Source: Takakia lepidozioides (lineage: Eukaryota; Plantae; Bryophyta). From it: a stretch of DNA of 64,000 nucleotides. The notes under the pieces are model-generated. The model did no database searches. It had not been told where the DNA came from and saw nothing but the letters and a program-made list of their open reading frames with translations. Of this stretch, positions 3,020 through 42,645 are shown in pieces. The stretch covers positions 32,178,001 through 32,242,000 of the forward strand of contig CM060732.1 in the NCBI GenBank assembly GCA_030704615.1, given 5' to 3'. How positions within the stretch are numbered: the stretch's first letter is position 1; each line of letters begins with the position of its first letter. Made by a program: the position numbers and the translations under genes.

Positions 3020-6000
3020 CTACCCATGTGTTGTATCCCGCTGCAAAAGAGTATCGACCTCGTTGAAACTCATAGTGGCCTGGTGAATGAAGTTGTCACG
3101 TTTGGGATCGCAAACCATCCTCCTCAAAAATATGAAATACAAATGTTTGCAGGGTATGAATTTACCTCTCTTGCCCAAACTGGTTGATAGCATATTCACA
3201 AAATCAGGACATGTGCAATTGGGGAAATTGGAAACCGTGATGTCGTAGGTCCTGTCATGAACAGCAGATGTGGAAGTGATGATTGTGAATACCCGACCAT
3301 ATCATGGATCGGGTACTTCCGTGGTGCTTCCGACACGAGCTTGGAGCATTCTTGCGGACTCCACTTTGCCAAAGTGTTCAGCGGTTGGAGGGAAACCCCG
3401 AACGAGCTTTCCATCTCGTTTGGTTGGCCACAAGTCAGGATTTGCCGGGGGGACCCGGGAGGACGCAGGAGTAGTAGCACATGCATGGAGTTGGGGTTGT
3501 CTCGCAAGGGAAAAACCTGCCTCCTCCAGCATTTCAATCTCCTGAAAGCTGAGATGTGTTCCCATCTTCACGGCCAAACGGTTGGAGGAGATGGCTTCAT
3601 CACTACGGAAGGACGCACAGTTCCATGCACACATCTGGCACAATCATCTGCGCAGAACCAGAACTTGTGGTTCTTGGCTTCTGGTTGACCGTATGGACGC
3701 ATCAAGCCCGTGAAAGTCGGAGCAGGAGTTCGGGCACCACCTCTGGATATAGATGAAGTGCACTTCTCGAAATTAGTTGCCCTGATCGCTGTACATTTCA
3801 CACGAGACCCGACACTTGTGCGTTCTATGTGCCAAACGTGGTCGGGGCATGCGGACTCAAGCACATCAAGGGGTTGTTTCTCTCCTGCACCATTTCAGTG
3901 GCACGGTTTGATGCTGGAGCTTGCCGTCGTGTTGGAGGTTCCTCCACAATGGAGGTTCCGGACATGGAGCTGTCATGCAGGGGAACACGAGGCTTCGAGA
4001 AGTTATCACGGTCTGCCCTGTGGGAATCTGAATCCGAACCAGGTGGAGTGTTCAATTTCCTCTTACAGGAGCCGAATCTCTCCTCCCCTTCAAGATGTGG
4101 AACTCTAGAAACAAGTGGCGTTCCCTGGGCATACATGCTCACCGCCCGTGCTATCTTGATTGGATCCCCAGATCTGTTTGCAGCACGCAACATCAACTCC
4201 CATTTGTCCGGACCCTTGCCACCAACCCCACCTCGTAAGAAATCACGGTATCGGGTTTGTTGTTGCAAGGCACGTATCAAATCATCTGTTGTTGCCACAT
4301 ACAAATCCCGACCTCGTTTCCCAGACTGCTGCAACCATGCATTGTGCACAGTTTCTGCCAAATTGCAAGATGGCATGTCCGCCATTTCCTCAATGGACAT
4401 GTTCTGCAAAGAGGATAACCACACTTCAGAATAGTGCACATGAAACAACATAAAGAAAGCAATGAGTCAAAAATATGGAAAGCAAATGTATGAATAAAGC
4501 ATGAAATAGAAGCCTCGTACCATTGTCATGGCTGCTCCCCACTGTCTATACCGGAAGTGCCAAAACGCCAGCCAATCTTCCAATGCTCTCATACTCTCAA
4601 GTGATGCAGCTCCAGAAGAGAACCACCAGGCACGAATTGTCTGGAACAAAGTGTCCGCCTCCTTCATTGTTCTAGCATCTTTGTACTCTTTGCACAATTT
4701 ATGGTGCTGAGTCTGCATCTCTGGTTTGATGTCCGACTTTGTATGTTTTTCCAGAGATTGTGTCCAATGGAATAGACATGTACGCTCTCTTCCTGGCATA
4801 GGCACTTTTGGGTCGCCCGATCCGAAGACAATACGAATAGCATTGAAATTTGCTTGAGCACTATCCGCCATAAAACCTGCGAAATTTGGAGATGGCAGCC
4901 CATGGCAGCCCATGACACGTATCAGGGAATTCCACATGAGCTTCTGGGATTCCGTATCCTCGGATTGCATGTCACAAACTGCAATTGTCATAACTCGTTG
5001 GTACACTGGATCGTAGACATGACAAGCCATTGTCGTCCAATCCTTCACTCGTTTCACATGATCAAACATAAGAAAACAGTTCTGCAAGTCCCCAGTCTTC
5101 TGCATCCGCTTCACGAGGCTAACCCCACTGCCCTCCCCAACAGTCGACATTTTGAAAAGAAAAACTTTGATGGCACCTTGACCTGGGAATACATTGTCCT
5201 GGATGTAATCGTACTTGCTCAGTCGTTTCAATTCCAAAATATTGTCTATGTAGCCTCTGATCCCAGAGCCCATTCTCAATGCATTGATCTGATGCCGAAT
5301 GTTAGGTGAACTTAAAGTGGAGAAATGATCCATGACCAGGTCCAATGCTGCACCGTCAAGTTTAGTCCCCACAGAATCTCCTTCACTCAAAATATGGCTT
5401 TCCAAGAAGGACTTGCTTGCGCCAAGAGCAATTGCAGATGTTGTTGCGGATGGGTTTCTCCCGAACTCCTGTTTGATCAACCTCGATACTGTCTCAACAC
5501 TCTCCCTGTAATCCCCCTTCGAGACAGGATGGTTATGGAATCCAAAATGCACACAAGCTCTCATCATTGTATTCAAACGGTGGACAACATAGTACATTCT
5601 TGCTCCGCAGAGCGCCAAGCAGGATGGCACAAGTTTGCAGAATTTGCAGACGAAAGTGTTTGCCGGTGGAGGGGCAATCCCAAGCTGAAATGGATTCTCC
5701 GCCAGACCCTCCCATTCGCTTTGATTATGAACACCAGACTGAAGAAAGTGTCTGCAATTCAAATTATCACACCTAAGGTGTCCATTGCAAACTGTCCTCC
5801 TGAAAACAAGCTTGTCATCATTCTGAATATTGGATGTTTTTGTTCTGCACCACGGGTGCCCGTCGTGTTTCTTGTCCATTCCATGCATCATGATTGTTAC
5901 ACCTCCAACTCGCGGAGGAGGAGGCAGCTCGAATAGGATATCGCCATCAAAAGTCTCCGGCAAGAACTTCACAGGCACCTGCTTCAAAGATTCCCAATCA

Positions 6001-6533
6001 ATTCCCCGCAACTCACTTTTGAATCCAGCCATTCCTCCCAACGCCCGCAATTTTGGAATGACACTACAAATCTCTTCTTCATCAGCTTCTGCAACCACAG
6101 TAGGAAGGACTGGATTTGGAATTTCACTTATGTCATCATCGGAAGAATCCGAAAGCTCAACGATTGGAGTGGAGGAAGTCTGTTCTTTTTTCACCACCAC
6201 CTCCCTCTTGTCTTCAACGACCGAAGCAGCAGTCCCGGGCGTCACATATGACCCAAGGGACTTTCGCCGAGGCTCTCCAAGTACTCTGTATCGACCAGGA
6301 CGCACTCTCCACTGGCTGATATGAGCCGTCTCATCACGGTTTTGGAAAGAATATTTCACCAACTTCCCTTTCAGATCGTAAACCTCTTTCTCCAAAAAGA
6401 TGGAGCCATTCTGCAGCTGAAAACGGGTAGCCAAGACATGTTCCAGAACAATTGCAAATCCATTGTCAAGGACTTCCTGGGAGAACGGCACTGGTTTGTC
6501 GTCTGAGAAGAACTCCGCTTCAGAGGAAGCCAT
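3020..6533 (-). pseudogene. MULE-family DDE transposase with GCM-like Zn domain and C-terminal SWIM finger (outer element)
   Basis: HDGHPW..CNGHLRC...C..C..H..H (GCM/WRKY-like), FLMFDHVKRV, FMADSAQA, CLFHW (CxxH), NLAETVH and SWIM CTCPDF..CKH. GT-AG intron 4520..4404. The 3' part has frameshifts and a TGA at 3302. Confidence 0.85.
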
Positions 6534-8112
6534 CTTCCTTCCTCGAGTATGTTTGTACCTTGCTATCGCAGATCTAGTGTAAATCGGTTTACTGCTGTCT
6601 CCAGAACACAGTTGAAGAATGAGCAGAGCATATGGCGGAGGAAGCTCAGATAACGACTGTGCATATTCTGTTATTCATTCCAGATATGCAGCCGTCCATT
6701 TTAATTACTTTTCTTGTGGGCCCAGTGGTCAGAGAATCCCTAGGGGCAGTGTCGGCAACTGTTAAACCGTTAATCAGAACCTCATCAATAAACCCAATAA
6801 CAAAGCCGACTTCCTGGAAGCATGCCACAGGATCTGAGAATGGGATTGCAGATTAAGTAAATGTATCTATATACTACTACCAATGATCATGCGCACCTGG
6901 AAAGTTCCAAATGTGAAACGAATGTGGGGTTTGGATAACAAGGATGACCGTGTATGATATTCCAAAATTTGTCATCAAACTCTCGTTCATTTATATTTAT
7001 TTGTTTAAGACTGCGCATCAATTTCTGGGATTCGCTGTTCTTTTTAAATATTGAACCCGTTATAATAAAGAACATGCCGTTTTTTTTGGGCGGCACACGT
7101 CAGACATCCATAACTGAATACGAACAGCTGTACACCAATTGCTGGCATGTGCACTAATAAGGAAACGACTATGTGTAACGGTCACGCGGGAGGGAATCCG
7201 ATGCTTCTAGAGACACGCAAGAACACAGGCAATCCCGCAAGAAATCGGGAGTCACTGCGTTTTTCTACTTTTCGCGCTTAGAGGGAGAGTGGTAGTCAAG
7301 CTGGAGAGGGTTCCTTCTAGAATACGAAAGAGAAGAAAGTCTCTTTATTTTACTTCCCTTAGAGAGAGACGCAGAGCAAGAGAGAAAATGACGAGGCGTC
7401 GTTTGTTGGAGAACACAGGGCCAAGGCAGCAGGTGAACGCGGAGACTGATTCACAAGAGCAGACGGAGACTGAGGCAGCGGCTGCGACACAGTCGGCGAT
7501 AAGAGTGCGCCAGCCTGTGGAGGCAGAGATGAATCGTAGGGACACTGAAGAAGGTGGAAGCACGCGGAACGCCGAACCTGAAGAAGGTCAAGAAACCCTT
7601 GCGCAGACAGAAACTCTAGCAGATGTGAGAGGGAAGAGGAAAGCTGCAGAAGGGGATCAAATTTCAAAACCTAAGAAGGTGCCAGTAAGTTTTATCATAT
7701 AGTCTGTCTGATTGCCTTTCAAGGAGTCCTTCCTCTTCCATTCTTTAGCAGGAACTACTGAATCGCGAGCGTCGTTAACGCCATTCGATTCTCCTCATGA
7801 GATTTATGTACCTATGTGTTTGAAGAGAAAGTCTGCACTTACTATTCTCCCTAAACTACAATGATTGTCGTTGCCGCCAATCAGTCGCACAGGGGGCTGC
7901 TATTTCATGAGCGGCATGAGCATGAGCGGAAAAAAAAAAAGCATGAGCAGACCATTGTCAGTCCACGGAAATAGGGTTAGGAGGCACGGAAATAGGGTCA
8001 TGTGAAGTTGGAATGTGGCACCAGTGGACTTAAAATGCAACATTTTATTGCAAATTTTGTGGCAAGCCACGTCTATACAAGTGTGTTCTAACTGTCATAG
8101 CCGGAATGGGCA

Positions 8113-11100
8113 CTACTCTCCTACACCCTCCGAGGAACTTGCCCCACCTTCTTCCTCATCCCCCTCATCCCCCTCATCCTCCGAGCTCTGTGATGCATCA
8201 GTTCCACTATGCCTCTCAAAAATCCCGTCCTCTCCTTGGGGGACTGTCCACCTCACCTCCTGGGAATCTTCTGCGTCTTCTCCCCCACTTTCCTCAGCAG
8301 AATCCAACACAAATCTACGAGCCCGACGGGCTCTAATAGCTGCTGCCTCCTCCCTCATCTTCATTTTCTTGAGGCTTGCCTCGTCTAAAATCTGCTGTAC
8401 ACGACTACGTTCGGAACACCTCCTAATGGACACCGAAGCAAGCCGGGCAGCATAAGTAGGCAGGATGTACTCCCTTTCTGGACTAGGCATGAAATCTCCC
8501 CTGGCAAAAAAAGGCACGTTCCTCCTGCCCATGAACTCCGGTGTAGACGTCCCTCCGGCAGTACTTGGCATCCTACAGTAAGAACAAATCCACTTGAAGA
8601 ATGTCAATACCAGCACAACCAGAAAGGGTTTTCAATGAAATAAGAGAGCGGAGGGAGGTGCCTCACAAAATCTGGAGGCAACTTACAATGCCACCACTCA
8701 CTCGTAAACCGGGGGCTCCTCGGCCTCGATCCCAACTTCCTCCCCCTGCTCCTTCTCGGATTTTTCCTCATCCTCCGAGGATGCCTCTTCCTCTTTCAGC
8801 AGACGTTCAGCCGCTGCAAGTTCCGAGTTGTGGAGGGCAGTATCTGGCTCGAAGGCGAACACATGCCTGTCGGACAACGTCCCTGCCCACATTGAAGCAC
8901 CTGAGGAACAAAGCGGGCGGTTAATAGCTTGCGGCATGCAATTGCAATGGGGCCAGGGGACAAACTGAGCACGTGAAGGCTTACCCGTGCCGCATGTGAG
9001 GTCCAGAATCCGCCCTTGGACATCCGAGCACGTCTCCATGAGGGTTTGGATGAAAGCAGGGCTTCGGGTCCGGCTGTACCGCCACGGTTTGCCTGTCTTT
9101 GTGTCCTTCGGCATACTAGAGTGGGGCACATAGTTGTAGAGGACATCGTAGGTTACAGGGTCCACAGCGGCATCAACAAGACGACCGTCGTTGCGGAATT
9201 TGAACGTAGACCCTCTCTTCACAAAGCAATATGCCTCAAACACCAATGTCTGCACATCCAACAAAGAAGGGATCAATTCCAGGGTCTACTTAACATACAC
9301 CACAATATGAAGTGAATGCAATAGATTGATAACTTACACTTTGGCCCTCTGTTCGCAACCCCTGCGTACTGATGCAGAACCATTTTCTGAGGAGGACCGG
9401 GGTGACACTTTTCGGTGTCCACCTTGCCACCGCATTCTCTGTGGTCTTCCCTCTCGTGGCAAGGACAACCACACATCCACCGTCATCCAGAAGCATCCCC
9501 GCCAGCCCAAACCCGGCTTTCCAGTAGTCCTCAGTAAACCTGTTCCAGGTGGGCACACCATCCAGGCCCTCCAGCAGCTCCCCATCTGGAATGTCGAGGA
9601 GAATCATGTCGCAAGCTCTCTCCACCTCAACCCCCCCCCGAGTGCTCTTGCAATTCGTGCTCACAGCCGTGAAGAATTCCATCATGGCTTCAAAACCAGG
9701 GGTGTCTTTAGGCTCTGTACCGGCAGCCCTCTTCTTGGCTTTCCCCTTCTGCTCCGCCAGAGACTTGTTGTGTGCCACCTTCTTCGCCCTGGCAGCGAGA
9801 GCGTCAAGGAAGCTCTCATTGACGCATTGGATGATGGTTGGAGGTTCTAGCTTTGGCCTGTGCGTAAACGTCACCGCCGAATACCGCCGTGTAGGCTCGC
9901 CCTCAAATGCCAACTTCTTGGCAGAGCCAGTCCCACTCCGAACTGACTTGGGAACCCGGACGACCGGTGACTGGGTAGGAGCAACAGCAGTCGCAGGACC
10001 TTGAACAAAATCGGCGTCGGAGTCACTCTCTTGGGTCCCCTCCTGCGCCTCCTCCGATGCCCCGATGGTTTTCTTCTTTTTGGGTGTTACTGCAGTCACC
10101 TGTTTCCTTGTCCTTTTCCTTTGACCTTTACTCTTCTCATGCAATTTCTCCTGAATTCCTGCCTGAGCAAGCTCTGCCGCTTTCCTGGAGTTCGCAAGCG
10201 CTTTTGCCTCTTTTGCACCCAACGGAGGCAGCGGAGCCCGGTTTCGTCGGAATTCAGCATCCAGCTTCAATTGAAACTCGGATGGGTCGAGCGAGCCGGG
10301 CGGAAGGTCCACATACCAAGGGCAATCACGCAAATGTTCCAGATGCCACTCCTTCACAATATCGTCAGTGTACATGGAGTCAGCCCCAGGGTTCCTCCAT
10401 GCCAGGAAGAATGGTGGCTCGAAAGACAGATGACCTTTCTCCAAAAGCGAGAACTTACAGTACCTGCATTCATGAAAAACCCAATGAGGTCCGAAAATGG
10501 CTAACTCCCTGAACGGCAATAGGGCCTACAACTGGAATATGGCGCCGAATTTCCACTTCAGGGCCACCCAGTGTAGGGACTTAGCCCGAAAATGGCTAAG
10601 TCCCTGGACGGCAATACGGCCTGGAACTGGAAAACGGCGCCGAATTTCCACTTCCGGGCCAGCCACCCTAGGGACTTAGACCGAAAATGGCTAAGTCCCT
10701 GGACGGCAATAGGGCCTGGAACTGGAATATGGCGCCGAATTTCCACTTCAGGGCCAGCCAGTCTAGGGACTTAGCCCGAAAATGGCTAAGTCCCTGGACG
10801 GCAATAGGGCCTAGAACTGGAATACGGCGCCGAATTTCCAGTTCCGGGCCAGCCACCCTAGGGACTTAGACCGAAAATGGCTAAGTCCCTGGACGGCAAT
10901 AGGGCCTGGAACTGGAATATGGCGCCGAATTTCCACTTCAGGGCCAGCCAGTCTAGGGACTTAGCCCGAAAATGGCTAAGTCCCTGGACGGCAATAGGGC
11001 CTAGAACTGGAAAACGGCGCCGAATTTCCAGTTCCGGGCCAGCCACACTAGGGACTTAGCCCGAAAATGGCTAAGTCCCTGAACGGCAATAGGGCCTGGA

Positions 11101-14100
11101 ACTGGAAAATGGCGCCGAATTTCCAGTTCCGGGCCAGCCAGTCTAGGGACTTTGCCATTTTCGGAGCCCTGACTGGAAATTCGGCGCCATTTTCCCTAAC
11201 ACCACTTAGGCCTCTAACATCCTGAAATGCCAGGACTTGAAAGAAAGGCAGCGCGTATGTACCTGTACAGAAGGCGCATTGCTGCTTTGTCCGCGTTCGG
11301 CTGGTCGGTGAACTCGTGGCTCCGGCGAGCATCTGCTATCTCCCGAAAGAATAGGTTGGTTTTGTAGAGCAGAAAGTACCTCGTCACATAGTCACGCAGG
11401 CTCTCTGCTGCAGGAGATATCTCCATCTTGAACTGATGTGCTTGTGTGTCCAGCTGCTCTTGCGCATTCGTCGTCACCTGTGGAGATTGTCCATCAGATC
11501 GCTTTCCTCAAAAAATACAATGAATCAACCCCCTACTAGAGTACAAGCCCCAAACGAAGCGTGGGGAAGTACCTGAAACCACCATGTCATGCGGTTCATC
11601 CACATGTCGAATGTGGGGTCAGAGAGTTTGTCCGGTTTGGGGAAGCTCCACATGTCCCTGGTACTTTGGGAACCATTCCAGATTTGGAGCCACCGGGTCT
11701 GTCCAACCACCCAGCATATTCGTAAGCGCCAAACACCACAAAAAGGAGTTGTTGCCACCACAATTTGGTTAAGAATGTATCACCTTTTCTGTTGCATCCA
11801 CACAGGATGTGGCTAGACGATGGAGCTTCTCCAATGTCATCGTGGGCTTCAGAGCGCGAGAGTAGTGCTTTCCCACCTCCACCAGAAAGTCGGCACCAAG
11901 GGCGGGATCAGCTATGGCCACGTACTTTACCATCCGCGACTTGTACTTTATGCGGGCCCTCACCTCCGCAGCTTTGACATACGATTCGAGTTCCGGGAGG
12001 GTTGGATTCTTCTCCTCTGACTCCATGTAGAACCTCCGCGCATGTGCCAAATCCTGCTGTATTTTCGTCTGTCGAAAAGCAGCACATAAGATTAGAGATC
12101 CTGCTCAACACAATTTCTTCTATTGGGGGGAGAGACAAATTAGCTCAACAAAACTGCAGGAGCTTTACCCGAAATATGTAGTCCACCATGGCGTCGACGC
12201 TCAGCCTATACCAGGTTCTGTCTGCCTTTGCCTCCGACTTGCGCAGGAGGTCGGCACTGAGGGAATTGGCAAACTCTTCCACCCCCTGCCTCCCGACATC
12301 CTTCACTCGGAAGAGCATATGGGACAAGTTGGTGGCAATGAAGGCATTCTCAGTCACCCTGCAGTGCCACATTTCCATCAAACAATACTGAAATGGGAAT
12401 TTTCATCATATATGAGGATTCGCAATGAAATGACTTCCAAATTCAAAGTCCAAAAGCGAGAGGGGTTGTAGCTTACGAGTTGATGTCGGCCATTGCAGCT
12501 TTGAGAAGACTGCGATCTTTGGGCCCCGCAACCTTCAGCACAACACAATCGACGGCGAAATGCCAATCGAGATCGTTGGGGTGGGCTTGGGCAATGTGCT
12601 CCATCCATGCCAGGAGGCGATGATTGCCGTCCCACACGTAGAACATCTTACCGGACATGTGCTGGAAAAGAGGATCACTAGCAATCGATCTCTCGAACTC
12701 CTCATTTCGCGTTTGCCAATGGGGACCCCATTTGTCCACCTCATCGGAAGTGTGGGCACGGGAAGCTCCGTGGTCGTTCTCAATGGAAACGTAAAAGGCG
12801 GCAGACCCCATTCGATATCCATCCCGGAAAGAGAATTTCAGCTTGTCGATATCGCCTGGGAGGGCAGGTCTCACCACCTGCAATGACACCAAGCGGCAAA
12901 GGGGAATTCGAAGCTTGGCCGGGTACACCATGCCCCCCAGCACCCTGCCAATGTTGCTGTGGGTTGCCTCCAACATCTTGGCAGCGGCCAACTTCATATC
13001 CGCCTCAGACATGACGTCTGCTGCAGAGGGGTTTTCCGGCAGCCCACCAAGACCGCCAAATCCAGCCTGTATGCTCCGGGTTTGGGGCCTGGGGATGTCC
13101 GGGAGAATGTCATCCTGGTCAGAAACATCCATGTCGTCCTCCTCAACAGGGTCAGCCACCTGCGAAACCACCTCCAGCACTCTCGTCGTCTCTACTGCCC
13201 TCTCCCTGGCTTCACCTCGAACTTGCACAATCGGTGCTCTTTCAGGTGTTCTTTCCTCTCCTCCACTCTCCACCGTATGGGTAATTGCGGGGGCTGCACT
13301 TGCCCGCGATGGTCTAACCGGTGTGCTACTGCCTCTCTGTGGTGTCTTGTAGGGATCCACCGTCTCTGTGTGTCCCTCGCTTACATTGGCATCTGTCATT
13401 TGGGCACCCCTGGCCTCTTCAGCTGCCTTTTGTCTTTCCTCCTTGCTAGCATTCTGTCTCGTCTGTTCTTTTGCCCTCTCTTTTGCCCTCTCACGGGCTT
13501 TCTGTTTCTTACTAGGGCTAGCAACAGGGGAGCCCTCCAGGACGACCACCTTTGATTGAGGCGAACTGACACCCTCGCGCGCACTGCTCACTCCCCCCTC
13601 CGCAGCCCGTGACTGCTCTCTCGCCGGGGATTGCATGTGCTTAGCTTTCTTCTTTTTCTTTGCGTGGGCGGGCCCTACTGCATGTGCATGAACAACCTCC
13701 ATTGCCGGATCTGCTGTCCTCATGTCCTCACGCCCTTCACCTGCCATGCCGCCTGCACCAACCTCCCCAATGCCTACTCTATCGTAATCTCGTTGCAAGT
13801 CCTCCCGTCCACCAACAAAAGATTTAAGTTTGCCCTCTCGCCCCAAGTTGGGCGATTCAAACATGCGATGAGTTGGAGCTGTCGATGATACCACCAGCGT
13901 GCCGGGCTCGTCGTCACTCTGTGATTGACAAAAATCGTGAACACCAACAGTGGTGCAAAAAGCAGCAGCGCAACCACCATAGCAGCAATCATGTAGCAAA
14001 AATGAAAACATAACAAGTTTAGGAAGTATGGAGAGCCATGCAACAACAATGAAAACAAATGCAACCATTGCCTAAGAATGACATGCACAAGCAGCCTTCT

Positions 14101-14343
14101 CCAGAGCTGCCGGATTTGCACACGCATTGCAAACAATCTAAGGTTCAGTCAACTATCTAAAGTTCACTCATAAAGCAAAGCCAGGATGAAGATGCAGAAA
14201 CAAAGCGAGGTAACGAAGCGAAAGCAAAAAAAAAATCGAACAAACCGAAAGCAGAAGTGGCTTGCCTGAGAGTACTCGGCTTCAGTTGGCGCAGGTTGTG
14301 AGCAAGACACTGGAATCTCCTGCTGGAGCTTCAGTTTGGCCAT
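8113..14343 (-). CDS. inner-element ParB/Srx-like domain fused to a beta-class N4C/N6A DNA methyltransferase fold; spliced, roughly 1,400+ aa, apparently intact
   Basis: Exons ~13920-12477, 12358-12169, 12068-11784, 11698-11573, 11477-11263, 10463-9338, 9249-8985, 8900-8702, 8572-8113. All eight GT-AG junctions are phase-compatible. YVWDGNHR (12617-12631), MILLDIPDG (9581-9595), LLDDGGCVVV, RSPAFIQTLMETCS..GRILDLTCGTGAS..RHVFAFEPD. The 5' start is uncertain. Confidence 0.82.
10491..11155. repeat. 7 x 95-bp tandem repeat (190-bp dimers) inside an intron of the ParB-MTase gene
   Basis: CCGAAAATGG at 10491, 10586, 10681, 10776, 10871, 10966 and 11061. Each unit has GGCGCCGAATTTCC and an inverted CTAAGTCCCT..AGGGACTTAG pair. 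Confidence 0.95.
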
Positions 14344-14669
14344 GCGAGAGATTGGCCGTCGTCCGTAGTACAGAGCTTTCAACTTCCGCCGCGGTCTGGA
14401 TCTGAGGTCTCTCTCAGGAGAGCCACGCCCTTCAGGCGGCATAAGTCCCAGCCAAAAAGATCTCCTTTTTTGGGGTACATGCCTGGAATACCATGTTAAG
14501 CCAAGTATAGCATGAGATTTAGGGTACGTGTCCAGGAAGCCATGCGTCGCCAGCCCGAATAATAACCGACGGCCGTCGACATTTATTGCCCAACTGCGCA
14601 ATTAAATGTCGGATGAAGCCCTCCATGTCGGAAGAAAATAGACGAAAACAGTCCCGGAATTTCCCTCAT

Positions 14670-15100
14670 GCAGGTAATTCGGAAGCGCCCGGATGGAAAT
14701 CCGGCGCCGAATTTCCATCCGCGCAGGTAGGGCGGTGCGCCAAATTTCCTTCAAGCAGGTAATTCGGATGCGCCCGGATGGAAATCCGGCGCCGAATTTC
14801 CATCCGCGCAGGTAGGGCGGTGCGCCAAATTTCCTTCAAGCAGGTAATTCGGATGCGCCCGGATGGAAATCCGGCGCCGAATTTCCATCCGCGCAGGTAG
14901 GGCGGTGCGCCAAATTTCCTTCAAGCAGGTAATTCGGATGCGCGCGGATGGAAATCCGGCGCCGAATTTCCATCCGCGTAGGTAGGGCGGTGCGCCAAAT
15001 TTCCTTCAAGCAGGTAATTCGGATGCGCCCGGATGGAAATCCGGCGCCGAATTTCCATCCGCGCAGGTAGGCCGGTGCGCCAAATTTCCCTGAAGCAGGT
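14670..15100. repeat. 5 x 85-bp tandem repeat with near-perfect palindrome GGATGGAAATCCGGCGCCGAATTTCCATCC
   Basis: GGATGGAAAT at 14691, 14776, 14861, 14946 and 15031. Confidence 0.95.
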
Positions 15101-16720
15101 AATTCGGCGCCGAATTTCCATCCTGCAGGTAATTCGAATCGTGGATGAATGGAAATTCGGCGCCGAATTTCCATCCTGCATGTAAGTCGGATCGGTGCCA
15201 TATGGATATTCGGCGCCGAATTTCCATCCTGCAGGTAATTCGAATCGTGGATGAATGGAAATTCGGCGCCGAATTTCCATCCTGCAGGTAAGTCGGATCG
15301 GTGCCATATGGATATTCGGCGCCGAATTTCCATCCTGCAGGTAATTCGAATCGTGGATGAATGGAAATTCGGCGCCGAATTTCCATCCAGCAGGTAAGTC
15401 GGATCGGTGCCATATGGATATTCGGCGCCGAATTTCGATTCGCCATTTATTTCTGAGCGAGGAATTACCTTCGTGCAGGTAATTCCCAAATAAGAATTAC
15501 CTTCGTGCAGGTAATTCGCATACAAGAATTACCTTCATGCAGGTAATTTCCAGATGAGAATTACCTTTGTGCAGGTAATTCTGGACGAGGAATAAACATC
15601 GATTGGAATTACCTGCAGGAAGGTAATTGTCATCTGGAAATTACCTGCACGAAGGTAATTCTTGTATGCGAATTACCTGCACGAAGGTAATTCTTATATG
15701 GGAATTACCTGCACGAAGGTAATTCCCCGTTCAGAAATAAATGGCGAGTGGAAATCCGGCGCCGAATATCCATACGGCACGGATCCGACTTACCTGCTGG
15801 ATGGAAATTCGGCGCCGAATTTCCATTCATCCACGATTCGAATTACCTGCAGGATGGAAATTCGGCGCCGAATATCCATATGGCACCGATCCGACTTACC
15901 TGCTGGATGGAAATTCGGCGCCGAATTTCCATTCATCCACGATTCGAATTACCTGCAGGATGGAAATTCGGCGCCGAATATCCATATGGCACCGATCCGA
16001 CTTACCTGCTGGATGGAAATTCGGCGCCGAATTTCCATTCATCCACGATTCGAATTACCTGCAGGATGGAAATTCGGCGCCGAATATCCATATGGCACCG
16101 ATCCGACTTACCTGCTGGATGGAAATTCGGCGCCGAATTTCCATTCATCCACGATTCGAATTACCTGCAGGATGGAAATTCGGCGCCGAATATCCATATG
16201 GCACCGATCCGACTTACCTGCTGGATGGAAATTCGGCGCCGAATTTCCATTCATCCACGATTCGAATTACCTGCAGGATGGAAATTCGGCGCCGAATATC
16301 CATATGGCACCGATCCGACTTACCTGCTGGATGGAAATTCGGCGCCGAATTTCCATTCATCCACGATTCGAATTACCTGCAGGATGGAAATTCGGCGCCG
16401 AATATCCATATGGCACCGATCCGACTTACCTGCTGGATGGAAATTCGGCGCCGAATTTCCATTCATCCACGATTCGAATTACCTGCAGGATGGAAATTCG
16501 GCGCCGAATATCCATATGGCACCGATCCGACTTACCTGCTGGATGGAAATTCGGCGCCGAATTCCATTCATCCACGATTCGAATTACCTGCAGGATGGAA
16601 ATTCGGCGCCGAATATCCATATGGCACCGATCCGACTTACCTGCTGGATGGAAATTCGGCGCCGAATCTCCATCCATCCGAGATTCCACTTACCTGCTGG
16701 ATGGAAATTCGGCGCCGAAT
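15100..16720. repeat. large inverted-repeat array: 53-bp monomers (106-bp dimers) on both sides of a symmetric 4+4 block of 24-bp palindromes
   Basis: ATGGAAATTC at 15801, 15854, 15907 and onward (~18 monomers to 16720), with ~6 inverted monomers at 15100-15435. GAATTACCT-N6-AGGTAATTC at 15462, 15494, 15526, 15558 and 15606, 15638, 15670, 15702. Unique spacer 15582-15605. Confidence 0.95.
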
Positions 16721-16770
16721 CTCCATCCGGGGATGGTCTCTGTCGGAGAGGTGCCGCCTCTCCGCCGCTC

Positions 16771-17370
16771 TGTTGGATATTCGGTGCCGAATTTCCGTCC
16801 CGGGGGTTGAAATATGACTGCCAGGTTCCGTCCTCTCCCCCCTCCCCGACTTCATTGGAACGGCCCCGAATTGAAATTCGGCGCCGTTTTCTCATCTGTG
16901 GAGGTTTTTATGTCGGCCAGTTTTCGCTCTGACACGCCGACAACACTTCCTTTGGGGGGGCCCGGATGGAAATTCGGCGCCGAATGGCCGTCCAGGGGAT
17001 GTTCTCTGTCGCACACTGGCCGGCCTCTGTGCCCCAGGCGACTTCATCCGGGCGTCCCCTGTTCGATATTCGTTGCCGAATTTCCGTCCGGGGGTTGAAA
17101 TGTGACAGCCAACTGCAGGCCACTCCCCCCTCCCCGACTGCATCCGAATCGCCCCGGATGGAAATTCGGCGCCGTTTTTCCATCTGGGATGTTTTTATGC
17201 CGTCCAGTTTTCGGCCTGACCCCCCGACACGACTCCCTTTGGGGGACCGGATGGAAATTCGGCGCCGAATCTCCATCCAGGGGATGTTCTCTGTCGCACA
17301 CACTCCGGCCTCTGCGCCAGAGGCGACTTCATCCGGGCTTCCTCTGTTGGATGTTGGGTGCCGAATTTCC
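16771..17370. repeat. two diverged ~290-bp tandem units, each with three GGCGCC-type palindrome variants
   Basis: TGTT(G/C)GAT(A/G)TT...GCCGAATTTCC recurs at ~16771, 17060 and 17345 with collinear intervening sequence. Confidence 0.8.
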
Positions 17371-17675
17371 ATTCGGGGGTAGTAATGTGACGGCACGGTG
17401 CCGGCTTATCCCCTTCAGCCGTCATCATCCGGACGGCCCCCCACTTTCTGACTGCATACCGTTGGCAGTTATTGCGCAAAGACGAGGGGCCGCATTCCGG
17501 AGACAAGGTTCATTAACACTCTGACTGTGGATTTTTGAGATAGTTGGCTCCCTGGATTTGGATCAGGCTTCGTCGCTCGGACAAATCGGCATCGCATTCA
17601 TTCCCATCGCTGCACCCCCTTCTACCAGGGAGCTTCCCCGCACGCCATCCTGGCAGTCTTGTGTGCACATCTCCC

Positions 17676-20600
17676 ATGGCGGAAAACCCGAGCGCTACAG
17701 TGTACTGCCCTCCTCACGAGCATAGAGCTTCATTTCCGTGCAGAGGGACACCTGCCGGGTGATGGAGAAATATCTGTGCGTTCGATACCACCTGAAACCG
17801 GGGTCGGTTTTTTTTGGAGGAGGAAAGGAAGGACTCAAACGGCCTTGTTGTCGAGAGTATTGTTGTGCTCCACGATGATTTCGGCGATGGCAGGGAATGG
17901 CGAGTTCCACCATCGGACAGCGTCATATACAGGGCTGTTGGGGACTTCATTTGCCCGCCAAATGCACCGTCTATCCTGGCGCCTTCCACGAAACAATCCG
18001 CGAATCAGAGAGTGGGTACCTCAAAGAGAGAAGTCCGCAACGAAGTAAATCCAGAGCCGAACCCATCCATGAAGACGACCGAGAACCGGGTTGTTCACAA
18101 CCTGTCCGACTCAGACGAGGTCATGGAAGTTCCGAGGTCGTCCTGGAGATCAGGCAAGTCCTCAATGGACGTCAGTGGAGGAGGGAGTCATATTCCCAGC
18201 ACGAGCACCGCAGTTCGATCTATTCTAGAAATTCTGCGAGGGCTTCACCTGGAGGGACACCGGTCGGAGCTGGCCGGGCTGGACTACAGCATGTTCGCAA
18301 TTAAATCGGTTACATGCCTTCCCGCCGACGTCGACGGTAATGTCTTCTTTGAGTTCCCTCCTCGGGCGGACTACTCGAGGGCGTCCGGAATGTTGACAGA
18401 TATGGATAGAAAACATGACGGTCATCCTTGGTGCGTTACCAAAACCACCAGCATGAAGATGCTTGATGGTGTGCGGGTGCGCTACGTTGTTTGTGCGGGC
18501 ACGTTGCGGTGTTTCTCCCCAACTTGCTTCCACTTTAAATCCAGAGGTCACAGGAACGAGACCGATTGGACAGGCACAGCTCACCAACCATTTCGAGCTC
18601 AGGAAAGGTTCCGAACTCCACATTTAAGTGTGCGCATTGCAAAGAACCACCACACTGCATGTCTGTTTGTAATGCCAAGCAGTTCTATGTGTTGCACCGT
18701 TTCCCTGACCTCACCCGAGCTTGCATACACGTTGGTTCCCATTGTCACAAATTGGCGAGGGGGAACTCGCGGGAGGCTGCCCACGAAGCAGAGCAGCTCG
18801 TTCAGGAGGAGGTTAAGTTGAGACGGGGGTGCCAAAACCCAAAAAGATACAGCTCCAAGCCGCCCCATAAGATGGCATTGGCCAGATTATGTCGGAGACG
18901 GCTCGGATAGAGTTCCTCTCGACGAGAAGGAATGGAGGCATTGCTCGAGTCGGTGTCCCCCGTAGTTCATCACATCGAATGTCCGAAACCACATTGTCCT
19001 CTTGCAAACAGAAATTGGGCGTGGCCGGATATGCCACTCCATTCTGGAGGTGAAGCGACGATGTGGATATGACTACATTCGTGGAAGTAGGTTTCCAGGA
19101 CAAGGGACTGAGGCAGATCGTTGTTTCGTATTCAAAATGTCCACGTGTGGACCTGGCAGTGGCGTCGCTGGTCGACAGGATGACGAGTGGGAACTTGTCA
19201 AACTTGGGTCATGTTCGACCATATCAAGCGAATTAACAAATCACCAGTGGGTGACAATGGTGGCAGCATGTCTACGACACCCACTGCAGGATGCTAATGA
19301 CATGCTATTTGTGAGATGAAAGGAGAGGACACACAATCGGAGATGCTTCTTTGGCATGGAATAAACGACAGATGGCCAAGGCGGGATTGCCCCCTCCCAA
19401 TTTCCGTGGTTTCATGGCGGACAACGCACAAGCAATTGGGCTGCCATCCGAGGGTGTACGGGCAAGACCCCAATGTTTCCCATGGAAGGCAAGGAGAGAT
19501 CTTGTGGGTTCCACTTTCTGCAGAGCCTTTCGCATACACAACCAGGCTTCGTGGCGCCAGATTTCAGAGAGGAGCACCCGTTCCATGTGCCTTGCGTGGA
19601 AGCGCGCTCCCACCTTGGATGATGCAGAGACACAGTTTTGCATGCATACGGGCTTGGTGGACATCGTCAGGTGCTGTAAGGAAATCAGACGAAGGAGCAA
19701 TGGTCAGTTGGCTAGCATGGTGGCATTATCGTTTCCTCCAGTTCGGCGACTATATGCGGGAGGTGAGTTGCACGAATTCCTGTCCCGTTGGATATTATTC
19801 TTGCTATTTTGTAACTTGCTTTAACCTCATGTGCTTGTGCAGGAAATGTGTCTCGACTCCGACACCGACATGCCCACGACAAACATGGCCGAATCAGTGC
19901 ACTCTTCCTGGCGTGCGTCCTCTTGCGGCGCATCTGGTGGACATCCTCACTGCCACAACGGAGGACATTGTGAGGTCAATTATGCAGCAATGCAGGTCAA
20001 CATACGATTTCTTGAAAGGGAACAGTGGGGCTTGGGCCGGACAGGCAGGAAATGCTGAGGCGGACTGCCTCCAGATCGAAGAATCCTCGAGTGGGCGGCG
20101 GCCTTTGCGAGAGGCCTTCGGGACACGCCATTTCTGCGAAGAGGCCAACATTTGGAAGGAGATGTTCATACCCGTCCAGTGAGACGAAGACTTGACGAGG
20201 CACCCTGGCGGAAGAGGATTCATGGCGAGCTGACAAGAATATTCGCACGCTCCCTCGTGGTCCGGTGATGTTGTCCGAGGAGGTCTCGTCGAGCACCGGA
20301 AGTCCTGCACGTTCAAGATCGCCATCTCCTTTGAGCACAGGGCGCGTGCCCCGGCACATAAAGAGCCATCTGTAGTAAAGCAATACAACATTTCCATTGT
20401 GGAGACAAGAGTGTCGGAGTCACAGTGGAGAATTGCGAGGACATTGCGGCATTTCGAGGAAGTGTTGCGCCATCCGGGTGGATACGAGAGCACGCTGTGG
20501 TGAGATGATTCGGAGGAACCCACACGGTGCTGGTACCTGCACCTTGTTTCATCAGCGGCAGATTTTTGACTCCCACATTGCTCACGCCACAACGCAGACA

Positions 20601-21260
20601 TTTTGGTTCTGTAGGCACGACATAATGACATGTGGTATTTGGCAAGCCCAAGTACGGGATTCAGGGAATGCCGGAGCCTCCGGCGTCTGGCCTGTTGCAC
20701 CGGGTTGCAGCCCCTCTCTCAGAATGAGGCGGATGCTCTATCTGCGGCGTTTCGAATGGTGCAACGCACAGACATCCCGGCCCACGCATTTCCGGTTCCT
20801 CAGACCAAAGCCATTGCATACTGCTCGCTCCAGTAGAGACGGATTGGACAATTCTGGCACATCCCACAATGCGATTCGAAGAGTGAAGAGACGACACCCT
20901 CCCAACAAGTTGAATGAGACTCGGATTGCCAATGCTCTTGGGATGGCTTGCACTATTCAGAGCTCCGTGGACGTACCCCCCCCCACCCGGCCTTGGGCGT
21001 GTGTATCGGATGGCAACGGCCCGGCTCGGCTGTACGCGACGATGTATACACAATTACGATTGGAGTGAAGCCGACTTGCAACTGTACGGACTTCTCGTTG
21101 ATGGAAGCAAAGAAGGGTTCGAAGTATTATCCGTGCAAGCATCTGTATTACATTTACCTGAAGAGGTTGAGGATGAACTGGACTATTGATGACTTTATTC
21201 ATGCAACCCCGCGTTGAGCGTGAACGAGCTGCACAAACTCCTCCTTCTTAGGGATTCCAG
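17676..21260 (+). pseudogene. MULE transposase with GCM-like domain and SWIM finger (inner element), many small indels
   Basis: MDRKHDGHPWCVTKT, CAGTLRC, FVFKMST, FRGFMADNAQA, WLAWWHYRF, NMAESVHSSW, FWFC and PTCNCTDF..PCKHLYYIY. Collinear with the outer transposase and has the same intron position (~19763-19842). Confidence 0.85.
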
Positions 21261-21419
21261 AAATCATGATGGGGCAAACGAAATCCTCCATATGGATTTT
21301 TCAAATGCATTTTTGCTGTATCAGACTTTTTTTTTTTTTGGCAGTGTAATGAATGCACCCCAAAACTCCTGGAATGAGGCAATATTCCCATTCAATGAGA
21401 TCCAACAGAGCAGTTTTGG

Positions 21420-21665
21420 GGCCATTTCTGGAAAAATGGCGCCGAATTTCTCTTTTTGGGGCCGAAAACTCGCTAAGTCCCAACATGCACTGGTACCCTG
21501 TGTTTTGGAAAATGGCGCCGAATTTCTCTTTTTGGGGCCGAAAAATGGCTATCCCCCAACATGCACTGGTACCGTGTCTGGAAAAATGGCGCCGAATTTC
21601 TCTTTTTTGGGCCGAAAACTGGCTAAGTCCGAACATGCACTGGAAAAATGGCGCCGAATTACCTG
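21420..21665. repeat. short array (~4 copies) of GGAAAAATGGCGCCGAATTT units related to the 95-bp repeat
   Basis: Shares GGCGCCGAATTT, GGGCCGAAAA and GCTAAGTCC with the 10491-11155 unit. Further degenerate cores extend to ~21790. Confidence 0.85.
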
Positions 21666-24129
21666 TCATGAGGGGACCTATACCGCGGAAATTCGGCACC
21701 ATTTTCGCCAGAGAGACCTATTGGACCTATTGCCGCGAAATACGTCGCCGTTTTTTCAGGTTACGGACCCTATTACCGCAATTCGGCGCCATATTTGCAC
21801 ATGTCGCTAGGAATTGGCTAGCGGAAGACAAAATATCATGAGCACAACTGTCAAAGTGCAATTTTCCCTTCAAGGGCCAATAATTATTTGGTTTTTCTGA
21901 CACATTGCATAAATTTGTTTTTTTATTGTTTTTTTTTTATTGTTTTTTATGTGTTTTTATTTTCGAAATTTGTACTTCTGCTCATGAAAACCGATTGTGT
22001 TACTACTCTGCTCATGCCGCTCATGCCGCCGCCTGCCGCTCATGCTCATGAAATAGCAAACCTCGTTGCACATATATGTCATTACACAACACCGATCCGG
22101 CAGGTTGTTTCTTTGTGATTGTCGTTACAGCCGTTCCTATCGCTCTCGCTCGCTTTGTTTTGAATACGGCAGTCTCGGCTTTGCATGTGTAGATTGTGCA
22201 ATTCTTTCACACCATTCATGGTGAGTTTCCTTGATACAGAGTGATTGTCGTTACCCCCATACCGATACCGCCATTTCTATTTGCAAATCACTTAGTCAGA
22301 ACTGATGGCATCGTTCAGAAACTGTGAGGTCGAGCCTACAGGATCAGAGGGAAAGGATCTGGAGATGGGGACGAGTCCGCAAAAAGCTCAGAGAATACAG
22401 ATGAAGCAGATGAATCCGAAGTGCACTACCTTGACAAGGTGAAAGAACTCATGTCATTCCAGAAGGTAAACTCTCAGGAGGTTATCAGGAGGTGACATGC
22501 CGTATCTGGAGGGCGTCTGGAAGCCTCTGTGCCGGATGATATCAATGCCTGTTGTGCGTCACTCTTTCTCCCATGACATAACAAAATTGGAGAGTGATTT
22601 TGTGCATGGATATAGACTTGGTGCACAGTTTTTTATGTGTCACTGACGGATATAATGGGGAAAGCACATTAGTTTCTCCAGAGATCAGATGATACCTGGG
22701 ATGATGCTGGAAGATGCCAATGAGAGTTCGAGCTGGCCTCATGATGGGAAAGAACACCCAGCATTCTGGCAACCACATGTTCTAACGTCTGGGACGCAAC
22801 CAACCGATATCTGGCAATGGATGGATACATTCAGAAACACCATTCGAAAGACAAAGACAAGCATTTTGCTGTGGAGGCAATGGTTTTGGATCCGGAAACG
22901 ACATCGCTAGCTTCTTACAGCTACCCCGTGACAAGTAAGTCATCCAGGAGATTTGATTCCCTCTGTAGTGTCTTGTTAATCCTCAAAAAAAGGTGTTAGA
23001 ATGCAATGTTTCCAATGTTTTTGCAGATCAACAGAGAAGATCGCATGTGACAACAAGCTTGGTTCACACACTATTCCGAATTCAGAGGATTGGTCTGATG
23101 AGCTGGATGATTTTCGGACAGTACTACCACCCAATATCATCAAAAGTGCGAAACAGGAAGAGCTGCAGGCACTTGGTATTCTTTGACACGAGAGGCTTTT
23201 CTGGAGTACATGTATGCGGTAAGCCCGAGTCTGTAACTGTTTACTTTTCGAATACATGTTTTAGAGTCCCTTCGGAGCTAATCACTACTTGAATGAATGC
23301 AGCAAGAACTGGCAGAGGCAGCTGAGAAGGAAAATCCGAAATTTCCGCACTACACCAGAGGACTAATGACATCAAAGGTGTGGAAGCTGCAATAAAGAAG
23401 GAGTTTGAGATGCGAGAACAATTGATGTCAGCTTCGGAAAGCAGCTTAGAATAGTAGATCCTGGACTTGGTCCTGAGTTCCTTCATCAGCAGATCAAACA
23501 CACTATGACAAGCATGTGCATCCGGAGATGCAGCAGGAGAAATTGCACCGGCTGGCCATATCGATGGTCGACCCACAAACAAAAATAAGGTGGCTGGAGA
23601 TATGGAACTCAGATCAAACAGTAAAGGACTTGAATCAGTTCCCAAGAGCACCATACAGCCTGGCACACAAGGTGGAAGGAATTAGTGATTTGGTGTTTGA
23701 TAACTGGCTCCACAAGGCTACATTTTGGAGTCAGGTGTGTATTCGAACATGCTGTTTCTTCTCTCTTCAGTATGTGATGTGTATCTTTTTTTGCAATCTG
23801 ACAAATATACTATTTGCAGCTCGAAAAGCGCGTCGTCATTGTGCTGGATCAGACTTTGAAGGACCTGAACATTGCGATTGTTTCCCTCCCCAAATGTCAT
23901 TGGAGGCACCATAAGGAAGTGGAGAGGTCTCAACACCTGGAGATACTTTTTTTCCGGGAGTTCTCCAAAGATGGAGTAACATTTTACGTCGTCAACGACT
24001 TTGACAGTCAGTTGGAGGAGAGTGGGCCATGAGCGAGTTGTGTACAGGTGCAATGTCATATTTGAAACTCTACTACTGTTTTGTTGGAAAAAATGTGGCT
24101 TCATATGGATTGCAATCTTAGATCCAGAT

Positions 24130-27800: not shown

Positions 27801-27854
27801 GTGGCGTGAGCGCAGTTGCGCTCACGTGACCAGGCTCACGCCGAGGCATCCCTG

Positions 27855-34437: not shown

Positions 34438-35608
34438 ACAAGAAATATGAAATCCATCGCTATCACTCGTTAAAACAGAAGTCGAGCCAGGGGCACCCCA
34501 AGCTATGGGGACTCCACCCCACAACAACCTGTACCCCTACATAAGCACACTCAAACCTAAACGATGCAGGAGCTCGGTCGCGCAGGCTCAACTCGAGAGA
34601 GATGAGCCACGCGACCGCCGCTCTCGTGAAGATAAGGCCGTTCAGGTGTCAAACTAAACTTGACACCTGATTTAACACTTGACCTAAATCCAAGTGTTAA
34701 ATACAAATAACTAGCTTTATTCTAGTTGTTTTCACACTGTGCTTATTTAACTTGACATGCAGTTGAGATAACATCAACTGCACCTTCTCCAATTGGGTTT
34801 ATCAGCAACCTCATTTCCATTCGGCTGTGGCTCGACCTACTGTCGACTGCGAAAGACCATCGGATGCGCTGCAACACTACATCCCGAGCTTAGTCGAAAA
34901 GACTGAAACCCATGTCATCATCAGACTCTTCCTTCGCTTCCTCCTTTTCTCCGGCAGGTGCAGCAGCAACACCTCCACCAGAGGAAGCCACCACAACCAG
35001 GGATGACGCCACCCCAAACTGTTTGCACTTCGTGATCCAGCCACTCCCGACTATTTTGGGTCCGAATCCAAAAGTTTACACGAGTCTTGTCTCCCTCCGT
35101 CCTAGTGAAAGAGAGTAGGGAAGCCAACTATCAAAGTCTTCAACCTCCACACCTCTTGGTTTTCAAACTCACGAGCAGAGACGACAACTAAATCTGCGCG
35201 CACAACCCATAGAAACAGCAGGGCCAGATGGACTCCCGCCCCAAGATATATATTATAATAATGCTAAAACAAACATTGTATCTAGCACAAGAAATATGAA
35301 ATCCATCGCTATCACTCTTTAAAATAGAAGTCGAGCCAGGGGCACCCCACGCTATGGGGACTCCACCCCACAACAACTTACACTCCCATCATAAGCACAC
35401 TCAGATCTAAACGCATGAAGGAGCTCGGTCGCGCAGGCTCAACTCGAGAGAGATGAGCTGCGCGACTGCCGCTCTCGTGAAGATAAGACGGACCAGGTGT
35501 CAAACTAAACTTGACACCTGATTTAACACTTGACCTAAATCCAAGTGTTAAATACAAATAACTAGTTTTATTCTAGCTGTTTTCACACTGTGCTTATTTA
35601 ACTTGACA
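34438..35608 (-). repeat. putative 5' LTR start region: two ~320-bp direct copies (34438-34757, 35288-35608) rich in hairpins
   Basis: Both copies end in ..TTTAACTTGACA (TGTCAAG on the minus strand). The LINE reading frame stops at the 35608 junction. LTR 3' end and PBS not located. Confidence 0.6.
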
Positions 35609-42179: not shown

Positions 42180-42645
42180 CCCAAGCCCTCCAACACTGCA
42201 CCCCACTCCCAAAGACCTCGGATCACGAGCATTTTCCTCTCCTGCGTCGACGTTCGCTATGTCTTCTCCTCTCTCTCTCTCTCAGGACGCTCCTTCCACC
42301 ACGTCCAGAATCCCTCCTCCAAATCCAGATGATGCCTTCCGCTGCTCTGTCCTCCAACACTGCACCCCACTCCCGAAGACCTCGGATCACTAGCCTTTTC
42401 CACTCTCGCATCGACTTTCGCTATGTCTTCTCCTCTCTCTCTCACGACGCTCCTTCCACCATCCCTTCTCCAAATCCAGATGATGCCTTCCGCTGCTCTG
42501 TCCTCCCACACTGCACCCCACTCCCGAAGACCTCTATCTCATGACGCTCCTTCCACCATCCCTCCTCCAAATCCAGATGATGTCTTCCGCTGCTCTGTCC
42601 TCCCACACTGCACCCCACTCCCGAAGACCTCGGATCACTAGCCTT
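42180..42645. repeat. imperfect tandem repeat, 4 copies of CACTGCACCCCACTCCC(A/G)AAGACCTC with ~100-165 bp units
   Basis: Copies near 42194, 42358, 42508 and 42606, with shared CCAAATCCAGATGATG. Confidence 0.85.

Follow-up and report, generated by a model that had tools for sequence, protein, structure and literature searches.

A palindromic repeat block at the centre of a Mutator-superfamily transposon in Takakia lepidozioides, a predicted binding-site array for an element-encoded protein

The DNA considered here is a 64,000-nucleotide stretch of the genome of Takakia lepidozioides (Bryophyta; GCA_030704615.1, contig CM060732.1, positions 32,178,001 to 32,242,000 of the forward strand), which we call the window and number from its first letter. 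Between two divergent genes it holds a block of palindromic tandem repeats at 14658-17391, and this block is the central intergenic region of a DNA transposon of about 14.2 kb, here named element A. An earlier reading of the letters, referred to below as the original prediction, had rightly placed the block between divergent genes, the left open reading frame (ORF) starting at 14068 on the minus strand and the right gene probably at a start codon at 17686 on the plus strand; it did not recognise the transposon. The block is separated by 590 bp from the left ORF and by about 295 bp from the likely transposase start codon. The parts of element A are the following.

7884-7890 and 22065-22071: likely target-site duplication, GTCGCAC and GTTGCAC, one mismatch, with a presumed length of 7 bp
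about 7891-22064: element A, DNA transposon of about 14.2 kb containing the block, delimited by empty-site contigs and an inverted 15-mer
7891-7960, plus strand: left terminal inverted repeat with three GCATGAGC motifs
8701-14068, minus strand: multi-exon accessory gene, with a putative ParB-like domain at 12476-12955, colinear exons and a possibly methylase-like last exon at 8701-9285
10490-11165: intronic array of the accessory gene, seven 95-bp units that each contain GGCGCCGAATTTCC and a second palindrome, AGGGACTTAGCC-N7-GGCTAAGTCCCT
14658-17391: the palindrome block
17686-21217, plus strand: frameshifted Mutator-superfamily transposase gene, with a C-terminal SWIM finger at 20918-21214
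21417-21643: array of 2.9 units of 74-76 bp downstream of the transposase stop codon, with three further half-sites up to 21790
22000-22064, minus strand: right terminal inverted repeat with three GCATGAGC motifs

Public reads with part of 12000-20000 were found in nine runs from five studies, and the contigs of four of these runs were placed on the region; among 14 runs listed, none with the stretch was an RNA run. Contigs of run X3 join 7883 directly to 22072, or to 22069 via four other letters, and contigs running right from 22065 are preceded by letters found left of 7884; together these joints describe the empty site of element A, at which a single copy of the duplicated target is present. 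The empty-site borders coincide with TGCTATTTCATGAGC, a 15-mer that occurs as an exact inverted pair at 7898 (plus) and 22058 (minus), unique of its kind in the window, and that is embedded in imperfect terminal repeats of about 50 nt. Target-site duplications of Mutator-like elements (MULEs) measure about 8-11 bp; the MULE traits identified are the terminal inverted repeats and SWIM domain of element A and, through the intact paralogue of its transposase described below, an IS256/Mutator-type fold and a GCM-like domain.

Summed contig depth reaches thousands to hundreds of thousands in runs of the same organism, at 5-17 for a single contig. Run X1 contributed 22016 contigs to the region, and 15 alternative joints are listed in each of two placements, with 48 and 75 more. 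The very high summed depth and the dozens of alternative joints indicate that the family of element A is multi-copy and structurally variable. Contig evidence further suggests that copies of this family carry the symmetric centre of the block: a 141-nt contig of run X5, which belongs to a different study, covers 15490-15628 across the central spacer with one difference, at a depth of 45.6 (flank contigs of the same run, 56-237), although it extends just 23 letters to the right of the spacer and so falls below the 31-letter threshold set for bridging.

This contig bears on an explanation that the original prediction had itself named as a possible refutation, namely that the palindrome is a fold-back artefact of the assembly. 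Many single-base indels relative to other copies could reflect a long-read assembly with residual errors, and the interior of the 106-bp array described below is without contig cover (16005-16445, in any of the four runs, probably because of repeat collapse), both of which would suit an artefact. An independent contig crossing the spacer nevertheless agrees with the assembly, and the arms are just 480 nt long, 3% diverged and flanked by unlike arrays and genes, so that we give this explanation next to no weight. The unit counts of the long arrays are those of the assembly, short contigs being unable to confirm copy number.

Tandem Repeats Finder resolves the block into seven adjoining tandem arrays, and its parts are listed here from left to right, followed by the inverted repeat that spans its core.

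14658-15107: 85-bp unit repeated 5.3 times, four half-sites per unit
15101-15436: left 53-bp unit repeated 6.3 times, equivalent to 106 bp repeated 3.2 times, with 22-bp palindromes
15462-15581: left 32-bp unit repeated 3.8 times, forming four 24-bp palindromes, GAATTACCT-N6-AGGTAATTC
15582-15605: 24-nt spacer, centre of the dyad
15605-15725: right 32-bp unit repeated 3.8 times, forming four 24-bp palindromes from 15606 onward
15749-16726: right 106-bp unit repeated 9.2 times, with a 22-bp palindrome every 53 bp
16770-17391: 285-bp derivative unit repeated 2.2 times, several half-sites per unit
15102-16085: inverted repeat of 480 + 24 + 480 nt, 97% complementary

All parts of this anatomy named in the original prediction are present. 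The 24-nt spacer occurs once in the 64-kb window, and it is flanked by eight GAATTACCT-N6-AGGTAATTC sites with 0-1 mismatch, four on the left (15462, 15494, 15526, 15558) and four on the right (15606, 15638, 15670, 15702); the inverted-repeat arms at 15102-15581 and 15606-16085, predicted at about 480 bp, differ at 15 of 480 positions; and the outer units, expected at 85 and about 290 bp, are indeed present with periods of 85 and 285 bp. Two descriptions had to be narrowed. The mirror-image 53-bp arrays exist, but their true period is 106 bp, made of two alternating subtypes, and the right array is the longer one. Likewise, the 2.7-kb block is real, but its mirror symmetry is confined to the inner 984 nt, beyond which the two sides no longer agree in the kind of unit or in its number of copies, with 85-bp units on the left and additional 106-bp units followed by 285-bp units on the right.

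When up to two mismatches are allowed, GAATTACCT-N6-AGGTAATTC matches 24 times in the window (0 expected), 16 of these matches being 2-mismatch hybrids in the outer units. The perfect 22-bp palindrome GGAAATTCGGCGCCGAATTTCC matches 36 times at up to three mismatches (0.00 expected), all but one within the block, and CAGGTAATTC at up to one mismatch gives 48 matches against 3.83 expected, 43 of them within the block; outside the 32-bp palindromes, CAGGTAATTC is on the plus strand to the left of the centre and on the minus strand to its right. CpG dinucleotides are retained: against an observed/expected ratio of 0.64 for the window, the block reaches 1.31 and its inner repeat 1.48.

Folded as single-stranded DNA, 15102-16085 adopts one hairpin at -613 kcal/mol, compared with -147 +/- 4.7 for 20 shuffles, and by this calculation cruciform formation of the inverted repeat would be energetically possible. 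A near-perfect 480-bp hairpin of this modelled stability, placed between two promoters, could also be a source of long hairpin RNA, from which small RNAs would silence the family or set its copy number in trans, much as the hairpin-RNA locus Mu killer silences MuDR. However, such a function would leave the outer asymmetric arrays, the intronic and 3' arrays of the element and the phased palindromic sub-structure unexplained, and a trigger of self-silencing carried by many copies would come at a cost to the element; we regard it as very unlikely. Every second 53-bp unit (15285-16643) contains CAGGTAAGTC, a perfect 5' splice-site consensus, possibly by coincidence. Its strand changes at the centre, from plus on the left to minus on the right, an orientation by which transcripts running towards and across the centre would carry splice donors. 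A U1-snRNA or splice-site meaning of CAGGTAAGT in the units was considered and dropped.

Inverted arms composed of tandem subrepeats also recall foldback elements, whose arms have this build and which passages of PMC3169594 link to Mutator-type transposases; since the neighbouring transposase belongs to the Mutator superfamily, the block might be a nested, non-autonomous foldback-type element inserted by chance between both genes. Yet the equality of the arms ends at 480 nt, the block is bordered by neither a target-site duplication nor ends of its own, its motif also occurs in two other arrays of element A, and the real termini lie elsewhere and are dissimilar, which leaves this origin hardly credible. 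A head-to-head arrangement of two elements was dropped as well, the inner ends being unlike real termini.

Both kinds of palindrome in the block are variants of one 10-bp half-site, GG(A/T)AATTCGG, whose distribution ties the block to the rest of the element. At up to one mismatch the half-site GGAAATTCGG matches 99 times in 64 kb, with 95 matches inside element A and 81 inside the block, and its longer form GGCGCCGAATTT matches 84 times (0.20 expected), in 83 cases within 10541-21790. Elsewhere in element A these sites belong to the 95-bp array, which colinear protein matches on either side (11288-11259, weak, and 10432-10307) place in an intron of the accessory gene, and to the 74-76-bp array with the half-sites that follow it. 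The second palindrome of the 95-bp units, AGGGACTTAGCC-N7-GGCTAAGTCCCT, is present in four perfect copies at 10575-11080; the 74-76-bp array (21417-21643) contains its half-site GCTAAGTCC as well, and the central block lacks it. A scan of metagenomes for AAATTCGGCGCCGAATTT returned 79 loci, each with one palindromic site and without an array, which we take as chance; it returned no sister copy. A heat-shock-element or NF-kB-like reading of the half-site was dropped, being a resemblance alone.

Divided by 10.5-10.6 bp, the periods of 32, 53, 85, 95, 106, 285 and 74 bp correspond to 3.0, 5.0, 8.0-8.1, 9.0, 10.0-10.1, 26.9-27.1 and 7.0 helical turns. With all periods near whole turns, successive sites would share one face of the helix. 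These regularities bear on whether the block could be a neutral, minisatellite-like expansion followed by inverted duplication, with no sequence-specific function. Tandem repeats are common in the non-coding regions of transposons, the many alternative joints inside the block indicate frequent gain and loss of units among copies, and the related element B, introduced below, manages without such a block. What neutral expansion accounts for poorly is that one half-site occupies three separate arrays of differing unit length (95, 32-285 and 74-76 bp) and occurs nearly nowhere else, that the periods are all close to whole turns and that CpG is retained in the block; we therefore consider it quite unlikely.

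To the left of the block, the first exon of the accessory gene (14068-12476, minus strand) closes with a conserved domain in which WDGNHRL is invariant. Screening of 644 candidates gave six relatives, four of them from the liverwort Riccia sorocarpa at 31-35% identity and two others at 43-50%, and tblastn matches continue colinearly at 12360-12160, 11990-11874, 11288-11259 (weak) and 10432-10307. The domain resembles phrog_1033, 'ParB-like partition protein' (E-value 0.012, in two of seven members), and more faintly Pfam DndB (E-value 0.26, in one of seven members), and in one Atlas cluster 11% of the members carry ParB_N. A ParB-like domain in this protein is thereby weakly supported at the sequence level. 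For the last exon (8701-9285), 13 of 30 Atlas matches fall in clusters with PF01555 (N6_N4_Mtase), and its ILDLTCGTG resembles an S-adenosylmethionine-binding motif; a methylase-like tail is a lead only.

To the right of the block, the reading frames of element A are homologous to an intact 688-amino-acid (aa) ORF at 4467-6533 on the minus strand (tblastn, 24-39% identity, E-value 1e-61). SWIM (PF04434) is found in the C-terminal exon at 19.8 bits, just above the cut-off of 19.6. The intact paralogue has 65 relatives by word search and 3263 representatives at an E-value of at most 0.001 by HMMER among 1.84 billion representatives. None of its relatives has a Pfam domain on record, and the 150 listed of the 3263 are close fragments with no link to named families. 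Transposase_mut (PF00872) is weakly matched in two of 28 relatives (best E-value 0.034); Pfam on 32 transposase relatives and NCBIfam on 28 gave nothing relevant, a profile search of the PDB with the transposase gave no relevant match, and a word search for longer proteins with the N-terminal ORF of the element A transposase gave none. Pfam on the large ORFs of element A found nothing beyond a chance-level GF_recep_IV match.

The AlphaFold model of the intact paralogue (28 sequences, pLDDT 76) retrieved the IS256-family ISCth4 transposase from the PDB with Foldseek at ranks 1-4 and 9 (best E-value 4.1e-4) and a DNA-bound GCM domain (1odh, E-value 7e-3) at rank 5. The protein is thus placed in the Mutator superfamily on fold and domain grounds, the support from sequence being weak. 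Judged by its model, this is a transposase family with an IS256/Mutator-like fold yet without a Pfam or NCBIfam model. In other copies, single bases are inserted or missing relative to the window at 17744, 17808, 19235, 19433, 19476, 20033, 20532, 20577, 20877 and 21020, indicating either a decayed copy in the window or an assembly with residual indel errors; in runs X5 and X6, indel differences are often present in every contig covering the place.

The intact paralogue belongs to an older related transposon, element B, in whose intergenic region element A is nested and which has a divergent gene pair like that of element A.

about 2389-27870: element B, host of the element A insertion, limits tentative
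near 2410-2501 and 27804-27841: presumed ends of element B, with palindromes built on GCGTGAGC
4467-6533, minus strand: intact transposase ORF, 688 aa
22332-23169, plus strand: remnant of a decayed ParB-like accessory gene, found by tblastn

The palindromes built on GCGTGAGC repeat 3.1 times with a 32-bp period at 2431-2526 and are present again at 27804-27841. The two elements share a terminal motif: GCRTGAGC matches 15 times in the window (4.33 expected), with 13 matches at the four element ends, three at each end of element A in inverted orientation and five and two at the presumed ends of element B, and none in the block. Since it is common to the ends of both elements, this motif appears to travel with the conserved transposase. 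The block motif, judged by its occurrence in the window, is private to element A, and its half-site is missing from both terminal repeats. This split between terminal and block motif is our chief reason for thinking that the block is recognised by some other activity than the one with which the transposase binds the ends.

The same evidence weighs on a reading in which the transposase itself binds the block, through an N-terminal zinc-finger/GCM-like domain, for autoregulation of the bidirectional promoter or as an internal transposition enhancer; analogues would be the TnpA sites of En/Spm and the transposase-driven activation of cognate Mutator copies. It draws on the match between the model of the intact paralogue and DNA-bound GCM, on conserved Cys/His columns and on two precedents: passages of 10.64898/2026.08.24.746577 describe sequence-specific activation of cognate copies by the AtMu1 transposase, and passages of PMC3688188 describe multiple transposase-binding sites in the long, internally repetitive repeats of Galileo. 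Nonetheless, the termini are where a transposase must bind, and they carry the motif common to both elements rather than the half-site of the block. We consider transposase binding to the block unlikely.

With moderate confidence, we instead predict that the block is likely a self-addressed array of binding sites, at a bidirectional promoter, for the ParB-like, methylase-like accessory protein. A dimeric DNA-binding protein encoded by the element, for which the ParB-like accessory protein is the best candidate, would occupy the palindromic sites cooperatively on one face of the helix and control the bidirectional promoter. Alternatively, the bound protein might mark or shield the chromatin of the element, via its methylase-like part or by excluding silencing. 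The dyad may have come from an inverted duplication that gave both genes an identical upstream array.

Several observations weigh against this proposal. The original prediction had called the left gene a ParB-methyltransferase, and although weak signals exist for both parts, Pfam at threshold finds neither a ParB-like nor a methylase domain in the ORFs of the accessory gene. A PDB profile search with the accessory protein gave no match, no helix-turn-helix was identified in it, and the AlphaFold model of the ParB-like domain, built from seven sequences, has a pLDDT of 45 and is unusable. The methylase assignment consists of the Atlas lead and a motif resemblance, the possible catalytic motif being IPDG and not DPPY. 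In addition, the transposase has zinc-finger and GCM-like DNA-binding parts of its own and could be the binder, and its gene is frameshifted, so that the copy in the window may be inactive. The helical repeat used for the phasing was chosen post hoc, and 85 bp, being the sum of 53 and 32 bp, is not an independent period. Finally, the rejoined intergenic region of element B (6534-7883 plus 22072-22400) contains no palindrome stem of at least 8 nt and no tandem array, which argues against the block being indispensable for such elements. Sister elements without a symmetric centre had been named beforehand as evidence that would count against the idea; element B, a distant relative, is such an element, but the contigs described above suggest that the centre is present in other members of the family of element A.

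As for the loading platform of the original prediction, the parS-like idea survives in modified form, given the phased palindromic array beside a weakly ParB-like gene, the recurrence of the half-site elsewhere in element A and the two 2025 papers discussed below; the modification is that everything lies inside a nuclear transposon. The proposed centromere or iteron platform of a replicon did not hold up. The block sits in the middle of a transposon, and Pfam scans of 72 ORFs of the window and extra pieces found neither a ParA-type partner nor a replication gene; with no ParA and no replicon, the block is not a partition centromere.

The remainder of the window is eukaryotic in character. A Ty3-like reverse transcriptase and RNase H adjoin a C-5 cytosine DNA methylase fragment (PF00145, E-value 1.4e-13) at 6-2502 on the minus strand, possibly a retroelement carrying a DNA methyltransferase, and further reverse-transcriptase pieces lie at 35.6-36.7 kb. 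Apparently ordinary host genes at 54549-55133 on the plus strand and 59783-62146 on the minus strand comprise a Myb/SANT-like ORF (Myb_DNA-bind_4), a ubiquitin-like ORF and, at 60-62 kb, an NPH3/BTB gene; the last of these contains an internal duplication of 228-238 bp (61936-62342). Tandem duplications with a period of about 850-915 bp and 81-95% identity are found at 43243-44982 and 34437-35608, and a 97-bp repeat at 42140-42650. No tRNA and no Rfam match were found in the window.

To our knowledge, VANDAL-VANC is the single case in which experiments have shown a transposon accessory protein to recognise its own element. The ParB-like accessory genes of algal transposons came to notice in 2025, and element A joins that recent kind as a clean test case outside algae, with a 10-bp half-site present about 95 times, a different terminal motif and an array-less related element nearby. 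It makes testable which encoded protein reads which motif, and what effect this has on chromatin. A more far-reaching and rather doubtful version of our proposal is that in the land-plant lineage a Mutator-like transposon took over a ParB/parS module of bacterial type, its ParB-like, methylase-like protein loading on a sopC-like, helically phased array of palindromes in the bidirectional promoter and thence marking or shielding all copies of the family; if true, a self-addressed epigenetic anti-silencing system would have arisen independently of VANC. For annotation, the locus cautions against dismissing a long central palindrome in an assembly, since it can truly belong to a multi-copy transposon.

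Among known systems, plasmid centromeres such as F sopC and parS arrays consist of tandem repeats, each with a short palindrome, that are bound by ParB/SopB. Element A resembles them in its tandem direct repeats with short palindromes beside a gene with a ParB-like domain, an assignment that is itself weak, and differs in being nuclear, in lying inside a transposon and in a site sequence unrelated to parS. With Foldback and Galileo elements, as the passages cited above portray them, it shares inverted arms of tandem subrepeats and the association with Mutator-type (FB, Tm1) transposases. In element A, however, the inverted repeat occupies the middle and the short termini are unlike it, so it is not a Foldback element.

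Closer counterparts come from algae. In giant Plavaka transposons of the red alga Bostrychia, passages of Petroll et al. 2025 (10.1101/2025.02.11.637652) describe PAG3, a ParB-like domain joined to a 2OG-oxygenase, with tandem arrays of inverted repeats adjoining it, and it is the authors' proposal that PAG3 binds and modifies the transposon encoding it. The 21.5-kb Sola1-1_Ec32 of Ectocarpus, in passages of Dinatale et al. 2025 (PMC12477816), carries a ParB-like and DNA-methylase gene opposite the transposase. Compared with these text passages, element A is likewise a giant cut-and-paste element with an accessory gene opposite the transposase, with a putative ParB-like domain that would be fused to a DNA-modifying part and, as in Plavaka, with tandem arrays of inverted repeats beside that gene. 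Unlike them, its transposase belongs to the Mutator superfamily and not to EnSpm/Plavaka or Sola, its host, with NPH3-domain genes and with the closest named homologues found in a liverwort, is of the streptophyte lineage and not a red or brown alga, and the partner domain is methylase-like, as a lead only, and not the 2OG oxygenase of PAG3. Its array is distinguished by an inverted repeat with 480-nt arms around 4 + 4 palindromes and by a motif that recurs in intronic and 3' arrays, the algal anatomy being compared here by text passages only. In a partial search of the literature, no comparable system from bryophytes or other streptophytes came up.

The second counterpart, and functionally the closest among tested systems, is the Mutator-like VANDAL21. 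Passages of Hosaka et al. 2017 (PMC5735166) show its VANC21 to bind arrays of a motif, amplified as fast-evolving tandem repeats in introns, intergenic and terminal regions, and to remove DNA methylation. To the extent that these passages allow the comparison, element A is similarly a Mutator-like element with an accessory gene and a family-specific motif, which element B lacks, and this motif is similarly amplified as tandem repeats in intronic, intergenic and other non-coding regions. The two differ in that VANC is a DUF1985/DUF287 protein with a 9-bp non-palindromic motif, whereas the sites of element A are palindromic and Pfam finds neither domain in the element A ORFs, and in that hypomethylation was shown for VANC, whereas a chromatin effect in element A is a prediction. 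By analogy, then, element A fits the algal ParB-like group in its architecture and VANDAL-VANC in the distribution of its motif.

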